Assembly (NCBI GenBank): GCA_045648605.1
Contig: JAZROG010000011.1
Span: 1 to 54,236 of the forward strand
Direction: 5' to 3'
Source of the DNA: Eubacteriales bacterium
GTDB lineage: Bacteria > Bacillota > Clostridia > Oscillospirales > CAG-272
Length of the DNA stretch: 54,236 nt
Part shown: positions 28,586 through 36,166 of the stretch, in pieces
Position numbering within the stretch: position 1 is the stretch's first letter
Layout: every line of letters begins with the position of its first letter
Position numbers and translations under genes: made by a program
The notes under the pieces: generated by a model
Databases searched by the model: none
What the model was told of the DNA's origin: nothing
What the model saw: the letters and a program-made list of their open reading frames with translations, nothing else

Positions 28586-30223
28586 ATGAAGCCTATAAGA
28601 AGATTTATTGCAAGCGGGTTGCTTCTAACATTTTCAGCGCTTATAATGAGAAGCATAAGTGTTTCGTTCGGAGCTTATGTTTCAAGAAGCGCGGGCGCCG
28701 AGGCGATGGGAGTTTTTTCGCTTATTATGAGCGTTTTCGGCTTTGCGCTGACAGTTGCCACATCCGGGGTCAATCTTGCAGTTACAAGAATGATTTCCGA
28801 AGCACTCGGAGAGAATGACGAAGCACTTTTACATAAGAGTATGAGAAAATGCATCGGATATTGCCTGTTTTTTTCTTTAATATCCGCATTTTTGCTCTTC
28901 ACGCTATCACCTTTTTTGGGCAACCGTATTTTGCACGATGCAAGAACAATCAGGCCGCTGAAAATTCTCGCCTTCTCCCTTCCCTTTATATCTCTTACAT
29001 CGGCTTATAACGGATATTTCAGCGCTGTCAGGCGAGTTTATAAAAACACTATTTATTCGGTTTCTGAGCAGCTTATTAAAATATTTTTCACTGTAAAAAT
29101 GTTTGAGATTTTTATTGACAAGGGCATAGAATTTGCTTGTATTGCTCTTGTTGGTGCAGATCTGATCTCCGAATTTTCAGCATTTTTAATATCGGGCATC
29201 ATGTACTTCAGCGACAAAAAAAGATATTCAAATAAACTCGAATCAAAATATTCGGATAGCGAGATAAAGGGAAAGCTTTTTTCCATTGCACTGCCGGTTG
29301 CATTCAGCACCTATTTTCGCTCCTCCCTGCTTACCATTGAGCATATTTTGATACCTAAATGTCTTATAAAAAACGGACTTGACCGCTCTGTGGCTCTTTC
29401 CTCATACGGAACTCTTCACAGTATGGTATTTCCCATCGTTCTTTTCCCTGTTTCTGTTCTGTCTTCCTTTTCGGGACTTCTCATTCCCGAGCTTGCCGAA
29501 GCGAAGATCAAAAAAAGAAAGGTCGCTGTGCAGTATATTGCAAGGCGAGCCTTTCAGTTTTCATTTATTTTTTCGTTTTTGATCTCGGGAATCCTTATCT
29601 GCTTTTCAAGGGAGCTGGGAATGATAATATATAACAGCCCCGAGGCATCCCATTATATCAAGCTTTTGGCACCTCTTGTTCCCATAATGTACCTCGACGG
29701 AGTGACAGATGCAATGCTGAAGGGACTCGGAGAGCAGGTATATTCCATGAATGTCAATATAATAGACGCTCTTCTTTCGATATTTTTCGTTATGCTTTTA
29801 TTGCCAAAATACGGAATGTCGGGATATATCGTAACCATTTACATAACGGAGCTTGTGAATTTCGCATTGAGCTTTTTCAGACTTTTAATGAAAACAAAAT
29901 TAGACATTCACATTGCAAAAACCTTGCTATCCCCTGCTTTTTCGATAATCATAACATCATTTTTTGTGAAAATACTATTTTCCTTCGCAAAAATACAGGC
30001 AAGCGAAACAGTAAGCCTTGTTTTAAAATGTATTTTTGCGGCTTTTATATATTATTTTTTCATAAGAGCTACAAAAGGACTGTCAAAAAATGACACGTTA
30101 TGGCTAAAAAATCTTTTTATTATCAAACGTTACTCGGAAGAACGGTACGAAGAGCGCCGAGATGCTCGCAGATATTCAGCTCCACTGCATCAAGAACGCC
30201 TTCGGAGTATTCGAAAATATTAA
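28586..30223 (+). CDS. MOP-superfamily flippase (SpoVB / MurJ-like polysaccharide or lipid II exporter)
   Basis: 545-aa ORF with about 14 TM segments. The N-terminus (LLLTFSALIMRSISVSFGAYVSRSAGAEAMGVF) resembles SpoVB-type proteins. The last 100 nt or so overlap the convergent phosphatase gene. Confidence 0.8.
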   Translation: MKPIRRFIASGLLLTFSALIMRSISVSFGAYVSRSAGAEAMGVFSLIMSVFGFALTVATSGVNLAVTRMISEALGENDEALLHKSMRKCIGYCLFFSLISAFLLFTLSPFLGNRILHDARTIRPLKILAFSLPFISLTSAYNGYFSAVRRVYKNTIYSVSEQLIKIFFTVKMFEIFIDKGIEFACIALVGADLISEFSAFLISGIMYFSDKKRYSNKLESKYSDSEIKGKLFSIALPVAFSTYFRSSLLTIEHILIPKCLIKNGLDRSVALSSYGTLHSMVFPIVLFPVSVLSSFSGLLIPELAEAKIKKRKVAVQYIARRAFQFSFIFSFLISGILICFSRELGMIIYNSPEASHYIKLLAPLVPIMYLDGVTDAMLKGLGEQVYSMNVNIIDALLSIFFVMLLLPKYGMSGYIVTIYITELVNFALSFFRLLMKTKLDIHIAKTLLSPAFSIIITSFFVKILFSFAKIQASETVSLVLKCIFAAFIYYFFIRATKGLSKNDTLWLKNLFIIKRYSEERYEERRDARRYSAPLHQERLRSIRKY

Positions 30224-30767
30224 GCGCGGTATTTTCGCACCATTTTATATCCTTCATGCCGTCCGTTCCTACACCCATTACCCTTGCATAAAGGCAACGA
30301 AGGGGAGTTGCATGAGTTCCGATAAGAACGGTTTTGCCGTCGTTTTCTTTTGCGATCCTGTCAATGGTGGAATTTATTCTGCTGTAAAGCTCTTTTGTGC
30401 TTTCGCCGCCATTGCACCGACAATTTCCGATATCGTTAAGCCAAACATTGTAATTTTCCGGATAAAGCACGGGAAGATCGGCAAATTTATGTCCTTCCCA
30501 CTCGCCCGCAAAAATTTCTCGAAGTCCGCTATCCTTGATTATCTCCTTACCCACCGCCCTTGCATAAGGCTCAACGGTATGGAAAGGACGAAGAAGATCG
30601 CTTGAATATATTACGTCAATAGGATACTCTTTTTTTACAAGATATTCGCAAAGAAGTCTTGCCTGCTCGTGACCTGTTTCTGTAAGATCCATATCCTTAT
30701 GACCGACAAAGACCTTTTGCATATTAGCGATACTCTGAGCGTGCCTTACTATTATCAATTTTGTCAT
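30123..30767 (-). CDS. Histidine phosphatase family protein (phosphoglycerate mutase / CobC-like)
   Basis: LIIVRHAQS (RHG-type catalytic motif), ...GESTKEL..., and GTHATPLR (second catalytic His). Confidence 0.85.
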   Translation of the reverse strand: MTKLIIVRHAQSIANMQKVFVGHKDMDLTETGHEQARLLCEYLVKKEYPIDVIYSSDLLRPFHTVEPYARAVGKEIIKDSGLREIFAGEWEGHKFADLPVLYPENYNVWLNDIGNCRCNGGESTKELYSRINSTIDRIAKENDGKTVLIGTHATPLRCLYARVMGVGTDGMKDIKWCENTALNIFEYSEGVLDAVELNICEHLGALRTVLPSNV

Positions 30768-30770
30768 TTT

Positions 30771-31667
30771 TTACTCCAAGCTATCAAGATATTCACAAGC
30801 ATGGGTTGCAGCGGAAGCACCGTCAGCAACGGCGGTTGCAAGCTGTCTCACACTCTTTTGTCGGCAATCCCCTGCAACGAAAACACCTGCGGTTTTCGTT
30901 CTGCAATCCTCACCCGATGCGGCATAGCCACCATCATCAAGGTCAATTATATTACCAAACGGCTCGTTTTCAGGAGCTTGACCAACAGCCACAAAAAGTC
31001 CATCAAGAAGAATTCTTTTTCCGCTGTCAAGCTCGATTCCCGAAAGCTGCTTATCTCCGAGAAAGGCAACGATCTTGGCGGGAGTAACTATTTCGACATT
31101 TTCTCTTTCTTTTATTTTGTTGACAAGGTCAATATCGCCTCTGAAGCTATCTCTTCTATGAATAAGATAGACCTTTTTACAAAGATCGGAAAGATAAAGT
31201 GCATCCTGAAGCGCGGTATTTCCGCCCCCGACCACAGCAGTATTCTTTTCCTTGAAAAATGCACCGTCACAGACCGCACAATAGGAAATTCCGCTGCCTA
31301 TAAGGTCATCCTCGCGGTCAAGACCAAGCTTTTTATGCTTTGCTCCGCCTGCGATTATCACTGCCTTCGCCTCAAATTCGCCGCTGTCGCATATTACTTT
31401 TTTAGTATTTTCCTGTGCTTCAATGGAAATTACTCTGTCAAATTCTATTTCCGCGCCAAGCTCGTTTATCTGCTCAAAAAGATTGTCTGCGAGCTCCATT
31501 CCGCTGATTTTCTTTACAAAAGGATAGTTTTCGACGCAAGGCGAATAGGTTATCTGACCGCCTATCATTTCCTTTTCGATAACAAGCACGCTCTTCCCCG
31601 CTCTTCTTGCATAAAGTGCGGCTGTCATGCCTGCGGGACCTGCGCCGATGACAATTATATCATACAT
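30771..31667 (-). CDS. trxB: Thioredoxin-disulfide reductase
   Basis: GAGPAGMTAALYA FAD motif, redox-active CAVCDG, VVGGGNTA NADPH motif and a GDC...Q C-terminal FAD motif. Confidence 0.93.
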   Translation of the reverse strand: MYDIIVIGAGPAGMTAALYARRAGKSVLVIEKEMIGGQITYSPCVENYPFVKKISGMELADNLFEQINELGAEIEFDRVISIEAQENTKKVICDSGEFEAKAVIIAGGAKHKKLGLDREDDLIGSGISYCAVCDGAFFKEKNTAVVGGGNTALQDALYLSDLCKKVYLIHRRDSFRGDIDLVNKIKERENVEIVTPAKIVAFLGDKQLSGIELDSGKRILLDGLFVAVGQAPENEPFGNIIDLDDGGYAASGEDCRTKTAGVFVAGDCRQKSVRQLATAVADGASAATHACEYLDSLE

Positions 31668-31679
31668 ATTTTTAACCTC

Positions 31680-31713
31680 AAAAAACGGAGCAACCGCAGA
31701 TGCGGTTGCTCCG
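31680..31713 (-). terminator. Rho-independent terminator or attenuator between nrdD and trxB
   Basis: CGGAGCAACCGCA-tc-TGCGGTTGCTCCG (13-bp stem) followed on the minus strand by TTTTTT, 13 nt before the trxB ATG. Confidence 0.75.
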
Positions 31714-31720
31714 CGTTATT

Positions 31721-34090
31721 TTAAATAAAGGATTTAATTGCGGGAACGCCTGTGAGAATTTCTATTTTCTCATCCTTACGGGCGATAAGTGTTGGCGCCT
31801 GCTTGATGTCATAGCGCTCAACAAGCTCCTTAACATCCTCTGCGAGAACTGTATTATATGCGATTCCTGCCTTTTCAAGCATGGAAATTGCAACCTTACA
31901 GTTGGGGCAAGTTTTTGTAGTTACAAGAAGCGGGATAGCGAGTCCGAAGGGATCATTAACCACGGGCTTTTCTACCTTGCTTGCCGCAATTATTTCGGCT
32001 CTGTTTGCCGACATATGGGAATTCATAAGATCATAGACCTTACGCTCCTTATATTCCTGAAGCTTACCGTCGTTCCAGTTCTGAACGGGACGGTAGTAGC
32101 CTGTAATACGGCTGTAAACCTCTGTTTTCTTGCCACACTCGGGACAAGTGAACTTCTCACCCGGAATATATCCGTGATCAACACAAATTGAATATGTGGG
32201 CGAGATGGAATAATAAGGAAGTCTGTAATTTGTTGCGATCTTACGAACAAGATCTGCTGCAGCCTTCCAATCGGGAAGCTTTTCGCCAAGGAATGCATGG
32301 AAAACAGTACCCGATGTATAAAGTGTCTGAAGCTCGTCCTGAATATCAAGAGCTGTAAATACATCCTCTGTATAGCCAACAGGAAGATGCGAGCTGTTTG
32401 TATAATAAGGAGTTCCGCCCTTTTCGTTTGCTGTAACGATATCGGGATATCTTGCGATATCATGCTTTGCAAGACGGAATGATGTGGACTCTGCGGGAGT
32501 TGCCTCAAGGTTATAGAGATCGCCGTATTCCTCCTGATAGTCGGAGAGACGCTCTCTCATATGGTTGAGAACCTCCTTTGTGAATTCCTGTGTTGCTCTC
32601 TGTGTAAGATCAGCATGGAGCCACTTTGCATTGAGACCAACCTCGTTCATACCCACAAGACCGATGGTTGAGAAATGATTATCGAATGTTCCGAGATATC
32701 TCTTTGTATAAGGATAGAGACCCTCGTTAAGAAGTCTTGTGATAACTGTTCTCTTAATATGGAGAGAACGTGCGGAAATATCCATAATGCGGTCGAGACG
32801 ACGGTAGAAATCCTCTTTATCGCTTGCAAGATACGCAATTCTGGGCATATTGATGGTAACAACACCAACAGAGCCTGTGCTTTCACCGCTTCCGAAGAAG
32901 CCTCCCGACTTTTTACGAAGCTCGCGCAGGTCAAGACGGAGACGGCAGCACATACTGCGGACGTCATTGGGCTCCATATCGCTGTTTACATAGTTAGAGA
33001 AATAAGGTGTACCGTATTTTGAGGTCATCTCAAAGAGAAGCTTATTATTCTCTGTTTCGGACCAGTCAAAATCACGAGTGATGGAATATGTGGGGATAGG
33101 ATACTGGAATCCGCGTCCGTTTGCATCGCCCTCAATCATGGCTTCAATGAATGCACGGTTGACCATATCCATCTCTGCCTTACAATCCTTATATTTGAAG
33201 TCAACCTCCTTACCGCCGATGATACAGTTCTGCTCTGCAAGGTCTGCGGGAACAGTCCAGTCAAGAGTGATATTGGAGAAGGGAGCCTGTGTACCCCAAC
33301 GTGAGGGAGTATTTACTCCATAAATGAATGACTCGATGCACTTCTTTACCTGATCGTAATTGAGGTTATCTATCTTAACAAAGGGTGCAAGATAGGTATC
33401 GAATGAAGAAAACGCCTGTGCTCCTGCCCATTCATTCTGCATGATACCGAGAAAGTTTACCATCTGGTTGCAGAGAGTTGCAAGATGCTTTGCGGGTGCA
33501 GATGTGATCTTTCCAACAACACCACCAAGTCCTTCCTTGATAAGCTGACGAAGTGACCATCCTGCGCAGTAGCCTGTGAGCATTGAAAGGTCATGAATAT
33601 GAATATCGGCATTTCTGTGCGCATTTGCGATCTCGTCATCATAGATCTCGGAGAGCCAATAGTTAGCAGTGATCGCACCCGAGTTAGAAAGGATAAGACC
33701 GCCGACAGAATATGTTACTGTGGAATTCTCCTTAACACGCCAGTCGGAAACATTTACATACTTATCTACAATATCCTTATAGTCAAGGATAGTGGATTTC
33801 ATATTTCTCATCTTTTCGCGCTGACGGCGATAAAGAATATAAGCCTTTGCAACATCTGCATATCCTGCCTGAACGAGAACAGACTCAACGCTGTCCTGAA
33901 TATCCTCAACGGCAACAAGGCCGTCCTTTATCTTTTCGGTAAAATCCGCAGTTACCTTAAGTGCGAGAAAATCAATAATATTTTGGTTGGTTTCCTTTTC
34001 GAGCGCTTCAAATGCCTGTGAAATAGCGCCACTGATCTTGGCAAGGTCAAAATCTACGACCTTGTTGTCTCTTTTTAGAACTCTGTACAT
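31721..34090 (-). CDS. nrdD: Anaerobic (class III) ribonucleoside-triphosphate reductase with a C-terminal CxxC thioredoxin-fold extension
   Basis: N-terminal ATP-cone (VLKRDNKVVDFDLAKI), SMCCRLRLD, Zn-ribbon CPECG and the glycyl-radical motif RITGYYRPV. About 100 extra residues follow, containing LLVTTKTCPNCK...APTLI, a glutaredoxin/NrdH-like fold. Confidence 0.96.
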   Translation of the reverse strand: MYRVLKRDNKVVDFDLAKISGAISQAFEALEKETNQNIIDFLALKVTADFTEKIKDGLVAVEDIQDSVESVLVQAGYADVAKAYILYRRQREKMRNMKSTILDYKDIVDKYVNVSDWRVKENSTVTYSVGGLILSNSGAITANYWLSEIYDDEIANAHRNADIHIHDLSMLTGYCAGWSLRQLIKEGLGGVVGKITSAPAKHLATLCNQMVNFLGIMQNEWAGAQAFSSFDTYLAPFVKIDNLNYDQVKKCIESFIYGVNTPSRWGTQAPFSNITLDWTVPADLAEQNCIIGGKEVDFKYKDCKAEMDMVNRAFIEAMIEGDANGRGFQYPIPTYSITRDFDWSETENNKLLFEMTSKYGTPYFSNYVNSDMEPNDVRSMCCRLRLDLRELRKKSGGFFGSGESTGSVGVVTINMPRIAYLASDKEDFYRRLDRIMDISARSLHIKRTVITRLLNEGLYPYTKRYLGTFDNHFSTIGLVGMNEVGLNAKWLHADLTQRATQEFTKEVLNHMRERLSDYQEEYGDLYNLEATPAESTSFRLAKHDIARYPDIVTANEKGGTPYYTNSSHLPVGYTEDVFTALDIQDELQTLYTSGTVFHAFLGEKLPDWKAAADLVRKIATNYRLPYYSISPTYSICVDHGYIPGEKFTCPECGKKTEVYSRITGYYRPVQNWNDGKLQEYKERKVYDLMNSHMSANRAEIIAASKVEKPVVNDPFGLAIPLLVTTKTCPNCKVAISMLEKAGIAYNTVLAEDVKELVERYDIKQAPTLIARKDEKIEILTGVPAIKSFI

Positions 34091-34128
34091 AATCTCCTCC
34101 GTTTTTCAGTTTTTTCGTTAGTGAGGAA

Positions 34129-34157
34129 ATTATACCATATCTTGTGGCAAATGTCAA
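34129..34157 (-). promoter_or_regulatory. Consensus sigma-70 promoter for nrdD
   Basis: The minus strand reads TTGACA (34157..34152), 17-nt spacer, TATAAT (34134..34129), about 40 nt upstream of the nrdD ATG with a GGAGGAG SD. Confidence 0.65.
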
Positions 34158-34229
34158 TTAGCAATATTTCACAGATAATATCGCGCTTTTTTGTGCACAA
34201 GCACATATTGTGCTAAATATTGTTTTTTG

Positions 34230-34245
34230 ACACTATATATTGTGT
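34230..34245. promoter_or_regulatory. NrdR box
   Basis: ACACTATATATTGTGT fits the published NrdR-box consensus acaCwAtATaTwGtgt at every position. A partial palindrome CACATATTGTG (34203..34213) lies about 30 bp away. Confidence 0.6.
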
Positions 34246-34253
34246 TCGGATAA

Positions 34254-34955
34254 TTATACACCTCTGATTTCGGCATCAGGGACATATTTTCGGGCAATTT
34301 CAATATATTGATTCATCTGTTCCTTATCAAGTCCGTGCATTTCAGCACAAATAAGGTCTCCCGAATCAACGAAATTTTGCAAATACCAGCGCCTTGCGCC
34401 TGCAATAAGCCTGCCGATATCTTCTATATCCTGTGGGCTATGAAGCTCAGAAACAACAGTGGTTCTAAACTCATAATCAACATCGGAATTCATCAAAACT
34501 TCTATGCTCTCGCATACTCTTTCCGTGTCATAACCGAGTCTTCCCACCGTTTCCGAATATTTATTCAGAGAATTTTTAATATCCACCGCAACATAGTCAA
34601 CAAGACCGAGAGAAACAAGCTCCCTGAGCTTTTCCGGAAAGCTTCCGTTGGTATCGAGCTTCACCTTGAAGCCCATGTCCTTTATTTTTTTGATAAAATC
34701 AACAATATCAGCCTGAAGCAGTGGCTCACCGCCGGTTATAGCCACCCCTTCAAGTGTTCCCTGCCTTTTTTTCAGAAATTCAAAAATATCGTCGGCAGAA
34801 TATTCCTCTCCATTTCTACCGAGGACAAGCGAGGCATTATGACAAAAAGGGCAACGGAAATTACAGCCACCTGTAAAAACCGTACAGGCAAGATGGCCCG
34901 GATAATCAAGAAGTGTGAGCTTTTGAAGTCCTTTTATAACCATCAGAATGCCCAA
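34254..34955 (-). CDS. nrdG: Anaerobic ribonucleotide reductase activating protein (radical SAM)
   Basis: GGCNFRCPFCHN radical-SAM cluster motif and GVAITGGEPL. The start is either the TTG at 34955 or the ATG at 34943, which overlaps the pepS stop (TGATG). Confidence 0.93.
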   Translation of the reverse strand: MGILMVIKGLQKLTLLDYPGHLACTVFTGGCNFRCPFCHNASLVLGRNGEEYSADDIFEFLKKRQGTLEGVAITGGEPLLQADIVDFIKKIKDMGFKVKLDTNGSFPEKLRELVSLGLVDYVAVDIKNSLNKYSETVGRLGYDTERVCESIEVLMNSDVDYEFRTTVVSELHSPQDIEDIGRLIAGARRWYLQNFVDSGDLICAEMHGLDKEQMNQYIEIARKYVPDAEIRGV

Positions 34956-36166
34956 TTACCTTTCTCGAATATCTGAACCTTTCTGCCGTCTCTCGTATAT
35001 GCAACGATATTAAGATCCTCTGAGCCTATCATAAAATCCTCGTGCATGATGGAATCGTTAAGACCCATTTTATGACATTCTTCCATAGTATATTTATCAT
35101 AATCCTTGATACATTCCATAAATCCTCTGCCAAGAGCAAGATGGCATGACGCATTTTCATCAAACAGAGTATTGCAGAATGTAATTCCAAGGTTATTTAT
35201 GGGGGAATCATATGCAATAAGAGCACATTCGCCAAGATATGCCGCGCCCTCGTCCATTCCTATCATCTTTTTGAGAAGGTCGGCATTTTTCTCGGCTGTT
35301 ACCTCCACTGCCTTTCCCTTTTCAAATCTGATGCTGAAGTTTTCTATCAGCTCACCATTGTAGGAAAGAGGCTTTGAGGAATAAACGATGCCCTCGGCAG
35401 TATCCTTATGGGGAGAGGTAAATACTTCCTCGGATGGGATATTGGGATTATAATAATCACCGCCAAGGGTATATTCGCCGCCTCCTGCAAATTTGCTTTG
35501 GGGCATAAGTCCAACTGTGAAGTCGGTTCCGTTTGAGGATGTATAGTGAAGCTTTTCAATATCAAGAGAATTAAGATAATCGCAGCGCTTTGCAAGGTCC
35601 TCGTTATGCTGCTTCCAAGCCGCAATGGGGTCTTCGGTTGCTCTCGATGCCGCAAGAATGGCTTCCCAGAGCTTTTCCATGGCAACGCTCGTTCTTTCAT
35701 TCGGGAACAATTTCTTTGCCCATTTTGCGCCCGGCACCGCCGCAATGCACCACTGATATTTATTATCCATCTTATCTCTGAAAGGCTTTACTACCTTTCT
35801 TTTCGCACCCATTGCGCGGCTGTATTTTTCTTGATCAATTCCCGAAAGTCCGTCGGGATCCTCACTGATAAGATAAATTCTCGCAGGGAGAGTGTCAACC
35901 TGATGCTGAAGCCTTGCCTTCTGCCATTTTTCGGTCTTTGAAAGAGTTTCAAGGGATTGATATTTAACAGCAAGCTTTGTAAGAGGCTGATAATCAAAAT
36001 CAACTATAACCTTTTTTGCACCCGCCTTGTAGCACTCCTCTGCTACCATATATACAAACTCCGGCTGCTCAAGCTCTGCTGTGATCATAACATCCTGATC
36101 TTTTCTTACGTTTACACCCATAGTTGCGATAAGCCTCGCATAATTTTTAAGAACTGATTTTTTCAT
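34943..36166 (-). CDS. pepS: Aminopeptidase, M29 (PepS/AmpS) family
   Basis: 407-aa ORF. The N-terminus LKNYARLIATMGVNVRKDQDV and the EEVFTSP / NASCHLALG motifs are typical of thermophilic-metalloprotease M29. Confidence 0.9.
   Translation of the reverse strand: MKKSVLKNYARLIATMGVNVRKDQDVMITAELEQPEFVYMVAEECYKAGAKKVIVDFDYQPLTKLAVKYQSLETLSKTEKWQKARLQHQVDTLPARIYLISEDPDGLSGIDQEKYSRAMGAKRKVVKPFRDKMDNKYQWCIAAVPGAKWAKKLFPNERTSVAMEKLWEAILAASRATEDPIAAWKQHNEDLAKRCDYLNSLDIEKLHYTSSNGTDFTVGLMPQSKFAGGGEYTLGGDYYNPNIPSEEVFTSPHKDTAEGIVYSSKPLSYNGELIENFSIRFEKGKAVEVTAEKNADLLKKMIGMDEGAAYLGECALIAYDSPINNLGITFCNTLFDENASCHLALGRGFMECIKDYDKYTMEECHKMGLNDSIMHEDFMIGSEDLNIVAYTRDGRKVQIFEKGNWAF

Follow-up and report, generated by a model that had tools for sequence, protein, structure and literature searches.

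A class III ribonucleotide reductase with a predicted redoxin tail, encoded beside thioredoxin reductase in Clostridia

Class III ribonucleotide reductase (RNR) is a main route to deoxynucleotides in many strict anaerobes. Few of these enzymes have been assayed, and the reductant of most of them is unsettled. The subject of this work is a stretch of 54,236 nucleotides (nt) from a Eubacteriales bacterium of the lineage Bacillota, Clostridia, Oscillospirales, CAG-272 (GenBank assembly GCA_045648605.1, contig JAZROG010000011.1, positions 1 to 54,236), which at its full length is called the window below. It contains nrdD, the gene for the catalytic subunit of the anaerobic enzyme, whose product ends in a tail with a CPNC motif, and the next gene is trxB, which encodes a low-Mr thioredoxin reductase. 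In a first-pass annotation of the window it was proposed that the tail and the reductase together supply NrdD with electrons. The analysis described here supports that reading as a hypothesis. The fused NrdD belongs to a known type of enzyme, of which it is an uncharacterised variant, and we lean, with somewhat better than even confidence, towards the view that the CPNC tail is a tethered NrdH- or thioredoxin-like disulfide reductant for NrdD, recharged by the adjacent TrxB with NADPH.

The described systems that are closest in function to the fused NrdD are the thioredoxin-dependent NrdD enzymes (NrdD2) of Neisseria bacilliformis and Thermotoga maritima. The N. bacilliformis enzyme uses thioredoxin, TrxB and NADPH (Wei 2014, as described in PMC4493059 and PMC9669993). 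The enzyme of the window shares with this type (T. maritima structures 4COI and 4U3E) the betaA cysteine, a double-cysteine finger loop and a glutamate, as well as an activase of the NrdG2 type and a Cys/His zinc site in the glycyl-radical domain. It differs in that its candidate reductant is fused and not free, its finger loop reads MCCR and not SCCR, an ATP-cone is present and trxB lies directly downstream. The closest system in design is the Grx::ATP-cone::NrdB protein of Facklamia ignava, in which the fused glutaredoxin (Grx) domain was shown to be the reductant of the RNR (PMC6187632). In both cases a small CxxC redoxin is attached covalently to an RNR subunit. The Facklamia fusion is N-terminal, is found on the subunit that generates the radical in an aerobic class I enzyme and is of the glutathione-dependent GrxC type, whereas the fusion described here is C-terminal, is part of an anaerobic class III enzyme's catalytic subunit, carries CPNC and has TrxB adjacent to it, in a draft host genome (1.91 Mb, 153 contigs, 92% complete) in which no genes for glutathione synthesis were found.

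NrdH redoxins, which have the motif C(V/M)QC, are reduced by TrxB. With these proteins and with the YruB-type glutaredoxin-like proteins of clostridia, the tail has in common a predicted thioredoxin fold of 70-80 residues, a CxxC pair, a QAP(T/V) cis-proline and TrxB as the presumed reductant. Unlike NrdH, it has a CPNC motif, is a fused domain and scores far under the family cut-offs. Wei is said to have described, in 2015, an NrdD3 of Methanosarcina barkeri that works with an NrdH-like redoxin and a ferredoxin:disulfide reductase. The likeness to that system is that a class III RNR would be fed by a small NrdH-like redoxin with the reductase encoded alongside; the difference is that in M. 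barkeri the redoxin stands as a protein of its own and is served by an Fe-S reductase in place of a flavoprotein. NrdD3 has QCCR/A in the finger loop and neither the methionine nor the glutamate (PMC9669993).

Fusions of a redoxin to NrdD have left little trace in the literature. A RefSeq survey at the Pfam gathering score recorded a single “Glutaredoxin:NrdD”, from Lachnospiraceae bacterium TWA4 (subclass NrdDd), as a table row only (PMC6187632). Beyond this 2018 row, nothing on a redoxin-NrdD fusion was found in the literature searched. A large fused family may have been missed by that survey because many tails lie under the Pfam threshold within the whole protein (19.6 bits for PF00462 in the present case). 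The C-terminal extensions of RNRs were analysed by Burnim 2022, where the glycyl-radical domain alone is described for class III (PMC9669993).

The features of nrdD, of the spacer that follows it and of trxB are as follows.

31721-34090, minus strand: nrdD with fused redoxin tail, class III ribonucleotide reductase, 789 amino acids (PF13597 626 bits, NF006126 1127 bits)
33815-34084, minus strand: ATP-cone, NrdD residues 3-92 (PF03477, 75 bits)
33566-33568, minus strand: Cys175, betaA active-site cysteine, aligned with T. maritima NrdD Cys125 and the betaA cysteine of Prevotella copri
32942-32953, minus strand: finger loop Met380-Cys381-Cys382-Arg383 (MCCR), aligned with T. maritima SCCR 328-331
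32504-32506, minus strand: Glu529, putative proton donor of thiol-type class III RNRs, aligned with T. maritima Glu495
32099-32101, minus strand: Gly664, glycyl-radical site in RITGYY (motif from residue 661)
31934-32029, minus strand: linker, residues 688-719 (about 32 residues), predicted flexible (predicted local distance difference test score, pLDDT, of 55-68 for tail residues 1-33)
31724-31933, minus strand: predicted thioredoxin-fold redoxin domain, residues 720-789 (70 residues, pLDDT 92-98)
31898-31909, minus strand: CPNC, residues 728-731, with the cysteines C728 and C731
31679-31714, minus strand: terminator-like hairpin with a U-run in the 53-nt spacer between nrdD and trxB
30771-31667, minus strand: trxB, low-Mr thioredoxin reductase, 298 amino acids (TIGR01292)

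NrdD is a class III enzyme by its scores, which exceed the cut-offs of TIGR02487 (511 bits) and of the two models named above for nrdD. The NRDD barrel and the glycyl-radical domain occupy residues 121-686, and the zinc-site residues of the latter are C636, H639, C649 and C652. The best NCBIfam model, NF006126, stops at residue 687. Residues 688-789 are therefore a 102-residue add-on, and three statements of the first-pass annotation hold: the protein continues for about 100 residues past the glycyl motif, the continuation consists of a linker (low pLDDT) and a CPNC domain modelled with a thioredoxin fold, and a trxB gene with CAVC comes next, with a hairpin in between.

The tail contains the sequence LLVTTKTCPNCKVAISMLEKAGIAY...QAPTLI, in which the cis-proline is P766 of QAPT. 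Four tail positions are invariant in 80 diverse homologues, namely C728, C731, L738 and P766, while the linker has no conserved columns in this 80-sequence alignment. The AlphaFold2 model of the tail, which was made with the same alignment, has a mean pLDDT of 86.5, and tail residues 34-102 reach 92-98. Its topology is beta-alpha-beta-alpha-beta-beta-alpha, with a strand at 34-37, a helix at 42-54 and a strand at 80-85 in tail numbering, where the invariant cysteines and the cis-proline are C41, C44 and P79. When the model was compared with the PDB by Foldseek, thioredoxins and glutaredoxins were matched with probability 1.00. As modelled, the tail is a thioredoxin-fold dithiol redoxin in which CxxC stands at the N-terminal end of helix 1 and the cis-proline precedes strand 3. 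The family models respond weakly. The isolated tail reaches 23.0 bits with PF00462 (Glutaredoxin; gathering score 22.9), 17.5 bits with GRX_bact (cut-off 90), 21.5 bits with the YruB-type Grx-like model TIGR02196 (cut-off 88.6) and 15.1 bits with the NrdH model TIGR02194 (cut-off 85.75), and it is far under the cut-offs of Grx3 and thioredoxin. A WSGFRP-like NrdH signature was not seen in the tail, and the weak single-sequence PDB matches include NrdH 1R7H. Judged by these scores, the domain is of Grx/NrdH size and NrdH-like in concept, and it is not a member of the NrdH family and probably not one of a glutathione-type Grx family.

The active-site columns used for classing class III RNRs were defined by Burnim 2022 (PMC9669993), and they were placed on NrdD by HMMER alignments to solved NrdDs. 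The alignment with T. maritima NrdD scores 137 bits across residues 151-689. Glu529 lies in YNLEATPAE, which is aligned with FNIEQVPAE of 4COI; the same column holds Leu in the formate-type P. copri NrdD and Tyr in chain 9D3X. Read in this way, the active site appears to combine a thiol-type signature (Cys175, the double-cysteine finger loop and Glu529) with the methionine of formate-type enzymes. Thioredoxin-only enzymes, among them those of N. bacilliformis and T. maritima, make up just two small subclades, both without the methionine (PMC9669993). The fused NrdD falls outside both, since its loop is MCCR and not SCCR, and Met380 places it in the larger MCCR + Glu group, whose members could in principle use formate or thioredoxin (Burnim 2022, PMC9669993). 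Both of the sequence-level checks suggested in the first-pass annotation, on the fold of the tail and on the subtype residues, thus favoured its proposal: the tail is modelled as a thioredoxin fold and the thiol-type residues are in place, although the methionine keeps formate use compatible with the sequence. A word-indexed search with the tail among NrdD-length proteins gave 614 clusters at 90% identity, and in the best 120 of these, where the motifs were scored, MCCR was found in 119 and CPNC in all 120.

The retained methionine is the starting point of the main rival explanation. Formate would serve as the reductant for turnover by way of Met380 and Cys175, in the manner of the E. coli enzyme, and the tail would keep cysteines, either the active-site pair or the Cys/His zinc site, reduced for activation by NrdG or for recovery after oxygen. 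We consider this role unlikely, at perhaps one chance in a handful. It draws on the conservation of the formate-type MGCR methionine in the 119 fused homologues, on the ability ascribed to MCCR enzymes to use either reductant (PMC9669993), on the report that thioredoxin activates E. coli NrdD (Padovani 2001, as cited in PMC4390871) and on the life of the hosts as gut anaerobes that meet oxygen transiently. It does not account for Glu529 and the second finger-loop cysteine, which are tied to formate-independent turnover. The same residues allow a second alternative, an enzyme that runs on formate or on the tethered redoxin, whichever is available, since Met380 occurs together with Cys381/Cys382 and Glu529. 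Use of both reductants is not known for any class III RNR, and we regard a dual enzyme as improbable.

The gene content of the host genome bears on both of these explanations. A canonical pyruvate formate-lyase (PFL) was not found in the 92%-complete draft, where the best score with TIGR01255 is 167 bits against a cut-off of 994, and this lack of a formate-producing enzyme counts against a role for formate, whether as the sole turnover reductant or as one of two. The only PFL-like glycyl-radical enzyme of the genome, with 841 amino acids, belongs to the PFL2/glycerol-dehydratase family (TIGR01774, 803 bits); the locus is G000:C34:5812-7857 (L009 1081-3606 and 260-1063), where its own activase adjoins it. 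Glutamate-cysteine ligase (GshA/GshF) was likewise not found in the draft, with a weak positive control for TIGR01435, and this argues against a glutathione-dependent glutaredoxin. Both absences fit a thiol-driven, glutathione-independent system. NrdD is the sole RNR found in the draft, with a single PF13597 (NRDD) match and no PF02867 match for the large subunit of a class I or II enzyme.

The product of trxB scores 322.6 bits with TIGR01292, slightly below the cut-off of 343.45, and has the motifs CAVC (130-133), GGGNTA (147-152) and HRRDSFR (170-176). The strongest match in the PDB, at 244 bits, is to 4ZN0, a thioredoxin reductase from Methanosarcina that we take to be NADPH-dependent, and HRRD is aligned in both 4ZN0 and 7AAW. 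These comparisons support the identification of TrxB as an NADPH-dependent low-Mr thioredoxin reductase, with NADPH as the probable donor in this window. A ferredoxin-dependent (FFTR-like) reductase was considered for the window and rejected: the NADPH motif is present, and the match to 6GNA is far weaker (134 bits). Among the linked reductases of other loci, the NADPH motif HRRxxFR was found in only 17 of 55 and 15 of 63 proteins in two samples. About three quarters are without HRR and have mostly QNLxxxT or QDLxxxT, and in a few cases TLFDKFF, at the column of HRRDSFR; for the QNL-type partners, the FFTR-like reading may apply. The type of donor motif varies within a genus, with QNL in G073 (L014) and HRR in the window and in G149. 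The early proposal of NADPH as the electron source therefore stands for the TrxB of the window and does not extend to most of the partner reductases.

The trxB gene next to nrdD encodes the only strong TrxB homologue in the host genome. The same was observed in relatives, since the nrdD-linked trxB is the only full-length TrxB homologue in 10 of the 10 checked, five with HRR and five of the variant type (G073, G155, G110, G043, G072, G149, G095, G098, G056 and G002). In every genome checked, that is, in the host and these ten, the whole thioredoxin system of the cell hangs on the gene behind nrdD. Two ordinary free thioredoxins are encoded on other contigs of the host genome, and the sole TrxB must also serve them. 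The module, first put forward as self-contained, is therefore not so in the sense of a reductase reserved for NrdD. A generic small redoxin fold beside the only thioredoxin reductase of the cell could also be a general thioredoxin that was fused to NrdD by chance and has no specific role in ribonucleotide reduction. This idea seems to us very improbable: the two free thioredoxins are already there, and a tethered domain is ill-placed to serve other clients.

The distribution of the fusion was surveyed in genomes with NrdD residues 641-789 as the query. A full-length match within an open reading frame (ORF) of about 800 amino acids, taken as the fused form, was found in about 130 of the 201 genomes sampled from the same family, and 74 of 97 genera in this sample had a match of any kind. 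Across the class, about 72 of 399 sampled genomes have the fused form, and about 60 further genomes match the glycyl-radical part alone, in unfused ORFs of about 700 amino acids. At least 592 fused loci were counted in a scan with one genome per species. The arrangement is common, not unusual. Named hosts of the fused form include Acutalibacteraceae, Oscillospiraceae (Faecalibacterium prausnitzii, Ructibacterium), Lachnospiraceae, Clostridiaceae and Peptococcaceae, as well as Erysipelotrichaceae and other Bacilli, Coriobacteriia and Lentisphaeria. An assembly artefact as the source of the fusion was rejected, as hundreds of independent genomes have single ORFs of about 790-830 amino acids that include the same tail.

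Shorter proteins that match the tail were also seen. A candidate stand-alone redoxin, G478:C74, was rejected because it is the end of a fused NrdD that was cut by the contig border, with trxB behind it, and the short tail matches in a search of 50%-identity representatives are mostly NrdD fragments that start inside NrdD (...QNWNDGK...). Four CPNC proteins of 74-80 amino acids (P0204, P0209, P0224 and P0227) appear to be free-standing. In two metagenomic proteins, P0139 (255 amino acids, including CAVC) and P0134 (138 amino acids), an N-terminal part of TrxB is joined to a CPNC redoxin; they may be chimeras of assembly or gene calling across the nrdD-trxB junction, or real TrxB-redoxin fusions.

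Linkage of trxB to the fused gene was scored by tblastn with the TrxB of the window downstream of the tail. A trxB gene lies within about 1 kb in 28 of 30 loci of the same family, the one in the window included (25 on the same strand within about 300 nt), in 27 of 29 loci of the class (26 on the same strand within 200 nt) and in 64 of 80 loci from named genomes (63 directly downstream); one further locus of these 80 runs off the end of its contig. In nearly all loci with enough flanking sequence, nrdG is found upstream of the fused nrdD. The unfused NrdDs of the same class are organised differently. None of the 12 that were compared has a TrxB homologue within 4 kb, and nrdG is downstream in 11 of them. 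Judging by this gene order, linkage to trxB appears to be specific to the fused form. A covalent tether combined with such tight synteny of a reductase, across hundreds of species, is not obviously needed for the repair of cysteines, which further lowers the standing of a purely maintenance role. The unfused enzymes have the same active-site signature (MCCR in 12 of 12 and the glutamate motif NLEATPAE in at least 10 of 12), and the existence of such sister enzymes apart from trxB counts in favour of a dual reductant.

The complete nrdG-nrdD::redoxin-trxB block was also observed in MT835493.1 (43431-51637, L176), an unannotated scaffold from human faeces labelled “UNVERIFIED: Bacteriophage sp.”. 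Its NrdD core is 83% identical to that of the window. Either a phage carries the module, or the scaffold is bacterial and was filed as phage.

The origin of the fusion was examined in a FastTree tree of 75 catalytic cores from which the tail had been removed. The fused rows were the best 80 matches, the unfused sample was small and the root was placed at the midpoint. In the tree, a single branch (SH-like support 87) sets off all 63 fused enzymes, and a long, fully supported branch (length 0.55) parts the fused enzymes from 11 unfused ones. Sister to all fused enzymes is the unfused NrdD of G549 (L172 = G549:C1:13719-21862), which has 696 amino acids and is 76% identical to the core of the window enzyme. 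It may represent either the state before the fusion or a loss of both the tail and the trxB linkage. At that locus, nrdG is upstream of nrdD, and a gene for an unrelated surface protein of 1063 amino acids is downstream. In the sampled tree, one gain would be enough to explain the fused enzymes. The sequences from Lentisphaeria are nested among those from Bacillota, a pattern that suggests that the fused gene was transferred as a whole. That the fusion, with what appears to be one origin, was kept during wide divergence and transfer between phyla speaks once more against a general thioredoxin attached by chance.

The remaining features of the locus are these.

34943-36166, minus strand: gene for an M29 aminopeptidase
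34254-34955, minus strand: nrdG, radical-SAM activase of class III RNR, 233 amino acids (Radical_SAM and Fer4_12 domains; TIGR02495 NrdG2 at 225 bits, cut-off 131)
34091-34253, minus strand: spacer between nrdG and nrdD, 163 nt, with a consensus sigma-70 promoter and two NrdR-box-like palindromes
30123-30767, minus strand: gene of the histidine-phosphatase family (His_Phos_1, 173 bits), 3 bases past the trxB stop

The promoter in the spacer upstream of nrdD reads TTGACA-17-TATAAT with a TG extension (34157-34129, minus strand) and agrees with the consensus at 12 of 12 positions. Upstream of it are the palindromes ACACAATATATAGTGT and GCACAATATGTGC, of 13-16 bp and about 32 bp apart. By their resemblance they are putative NrdR boxes, and an nrdR gene is present in the host genome on contig C40. 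The hairpin behind nrdD has a 13-bp stem with nine GC pairs, followed by six U. At -26.8 kcal/mol (z = -5.5), it folds better than any of 200 shuffled sequences. In G149, of the same genus, the stem is kept, a single A-to-G change makes for a G-U pair and the loop differs. A promoter-like match at 31681-31654 was rejected as a trxB promoter, as its -10 box lies within the trxB coding sequence, and no credible separate promoter was found after the hairpin in the 53-nt spacer. Expression of trxB would then probably depend on read-through from nrdD. The gap between nrdD and trxB is 11-30 nt in many other fused loci, which leaves no room for a terminator there. The histidine-phosphatase gene is probably co-transcribed with trxB in this window. 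None of the 80 named related loci has a homologue of it by tblastn, and its linkage to trxB thus appears to be local.

On the reading that we favour, catalysis could proceed as follows. As with every class III RNR, NrdG would generate the glycyl radical, here on Gly664. Each turnover would oxidise Cys175 and either Cys381 or Cys382 to a disulfide, with Glu529 as the proton donor (acid/base). The tail would then swing on its linker and re-reduce the disulfide, be it within the same subunit or across the dimer in the other one, so that turnover would take this route and not that of formate, and TrxB would reduce the CPNC tail using NADPH. Partial termination at the hairpin probably governs the relative amounts of the two products. 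The domain architecture, the modelled fold with its invariant CxxC and cis-proline, the active-site residues, the NADPH motif of TrxB and the conserved order nrdG-nrdD::redoxin-trxB are observed and speak for this scheme, the gene linkage strongly so. It is also favoured by the apparent single origin of the fusion, by the gene content of the 92%-complete draft and by the precedents of the Facklamia NrdB fusion, the N. bacilliformis NrdD and the NrdH redoxins.

Several observations weigh against this scheme. The methionine used by formate-type enzymes, Met380, is retained in NrdD. A strong terminator-like hairpin stands between nrdD and trxB, no separate trxB promoter was found in the spacer, and co-transcription of the two genes is presumed. 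In 15 of the 80 named fused loci (e.g., in Lentisphaeria and some Lachnospiraceae), there is no trxB within 4 kb. Because the linked gene encodes the sole TrxB of the host and of all ten relatives, its place beside nrdD could reflect general co-regulation and not a specific partnership. The absences of PFL and of the glutathione genes are provisional, as the draft is 92% complete. Finally, every electron-transfer step is proposed from comparisons of sequences and models.

Enzymes with MCCR + Glu are the commonest double-cysteine type of class III RNR, and their reductant was left open in Burnim 2022 (PMC9669993). With a tethered redoxin and an adjacent reductase, the locus offers a natural and directly testable handle on the question of which reductant class III RNRs use. 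It is about an even call, in our view, that the fused redoxin attests, at the level of genomes, to protein thiols and not formate as the reductant of MCCR + Glu enzymes, and that a large group of gut Clostridia organises its single TrxB gene around the synthesis of deoxynucleoside triphosphates (dNTPs) in the order nrdG-nrdD::redoxin-trxB, with at least two interchangeable types of donor, HRR (NADPH) as opposed to QNL/QDL or TLF, that switch even within a genus. The module is found in abundant gut species, such as Faecalibacterium prausnitzii, and therefore bears on how the supply of dNTPs relates to NADPH and the redox state in the gut microbiota.

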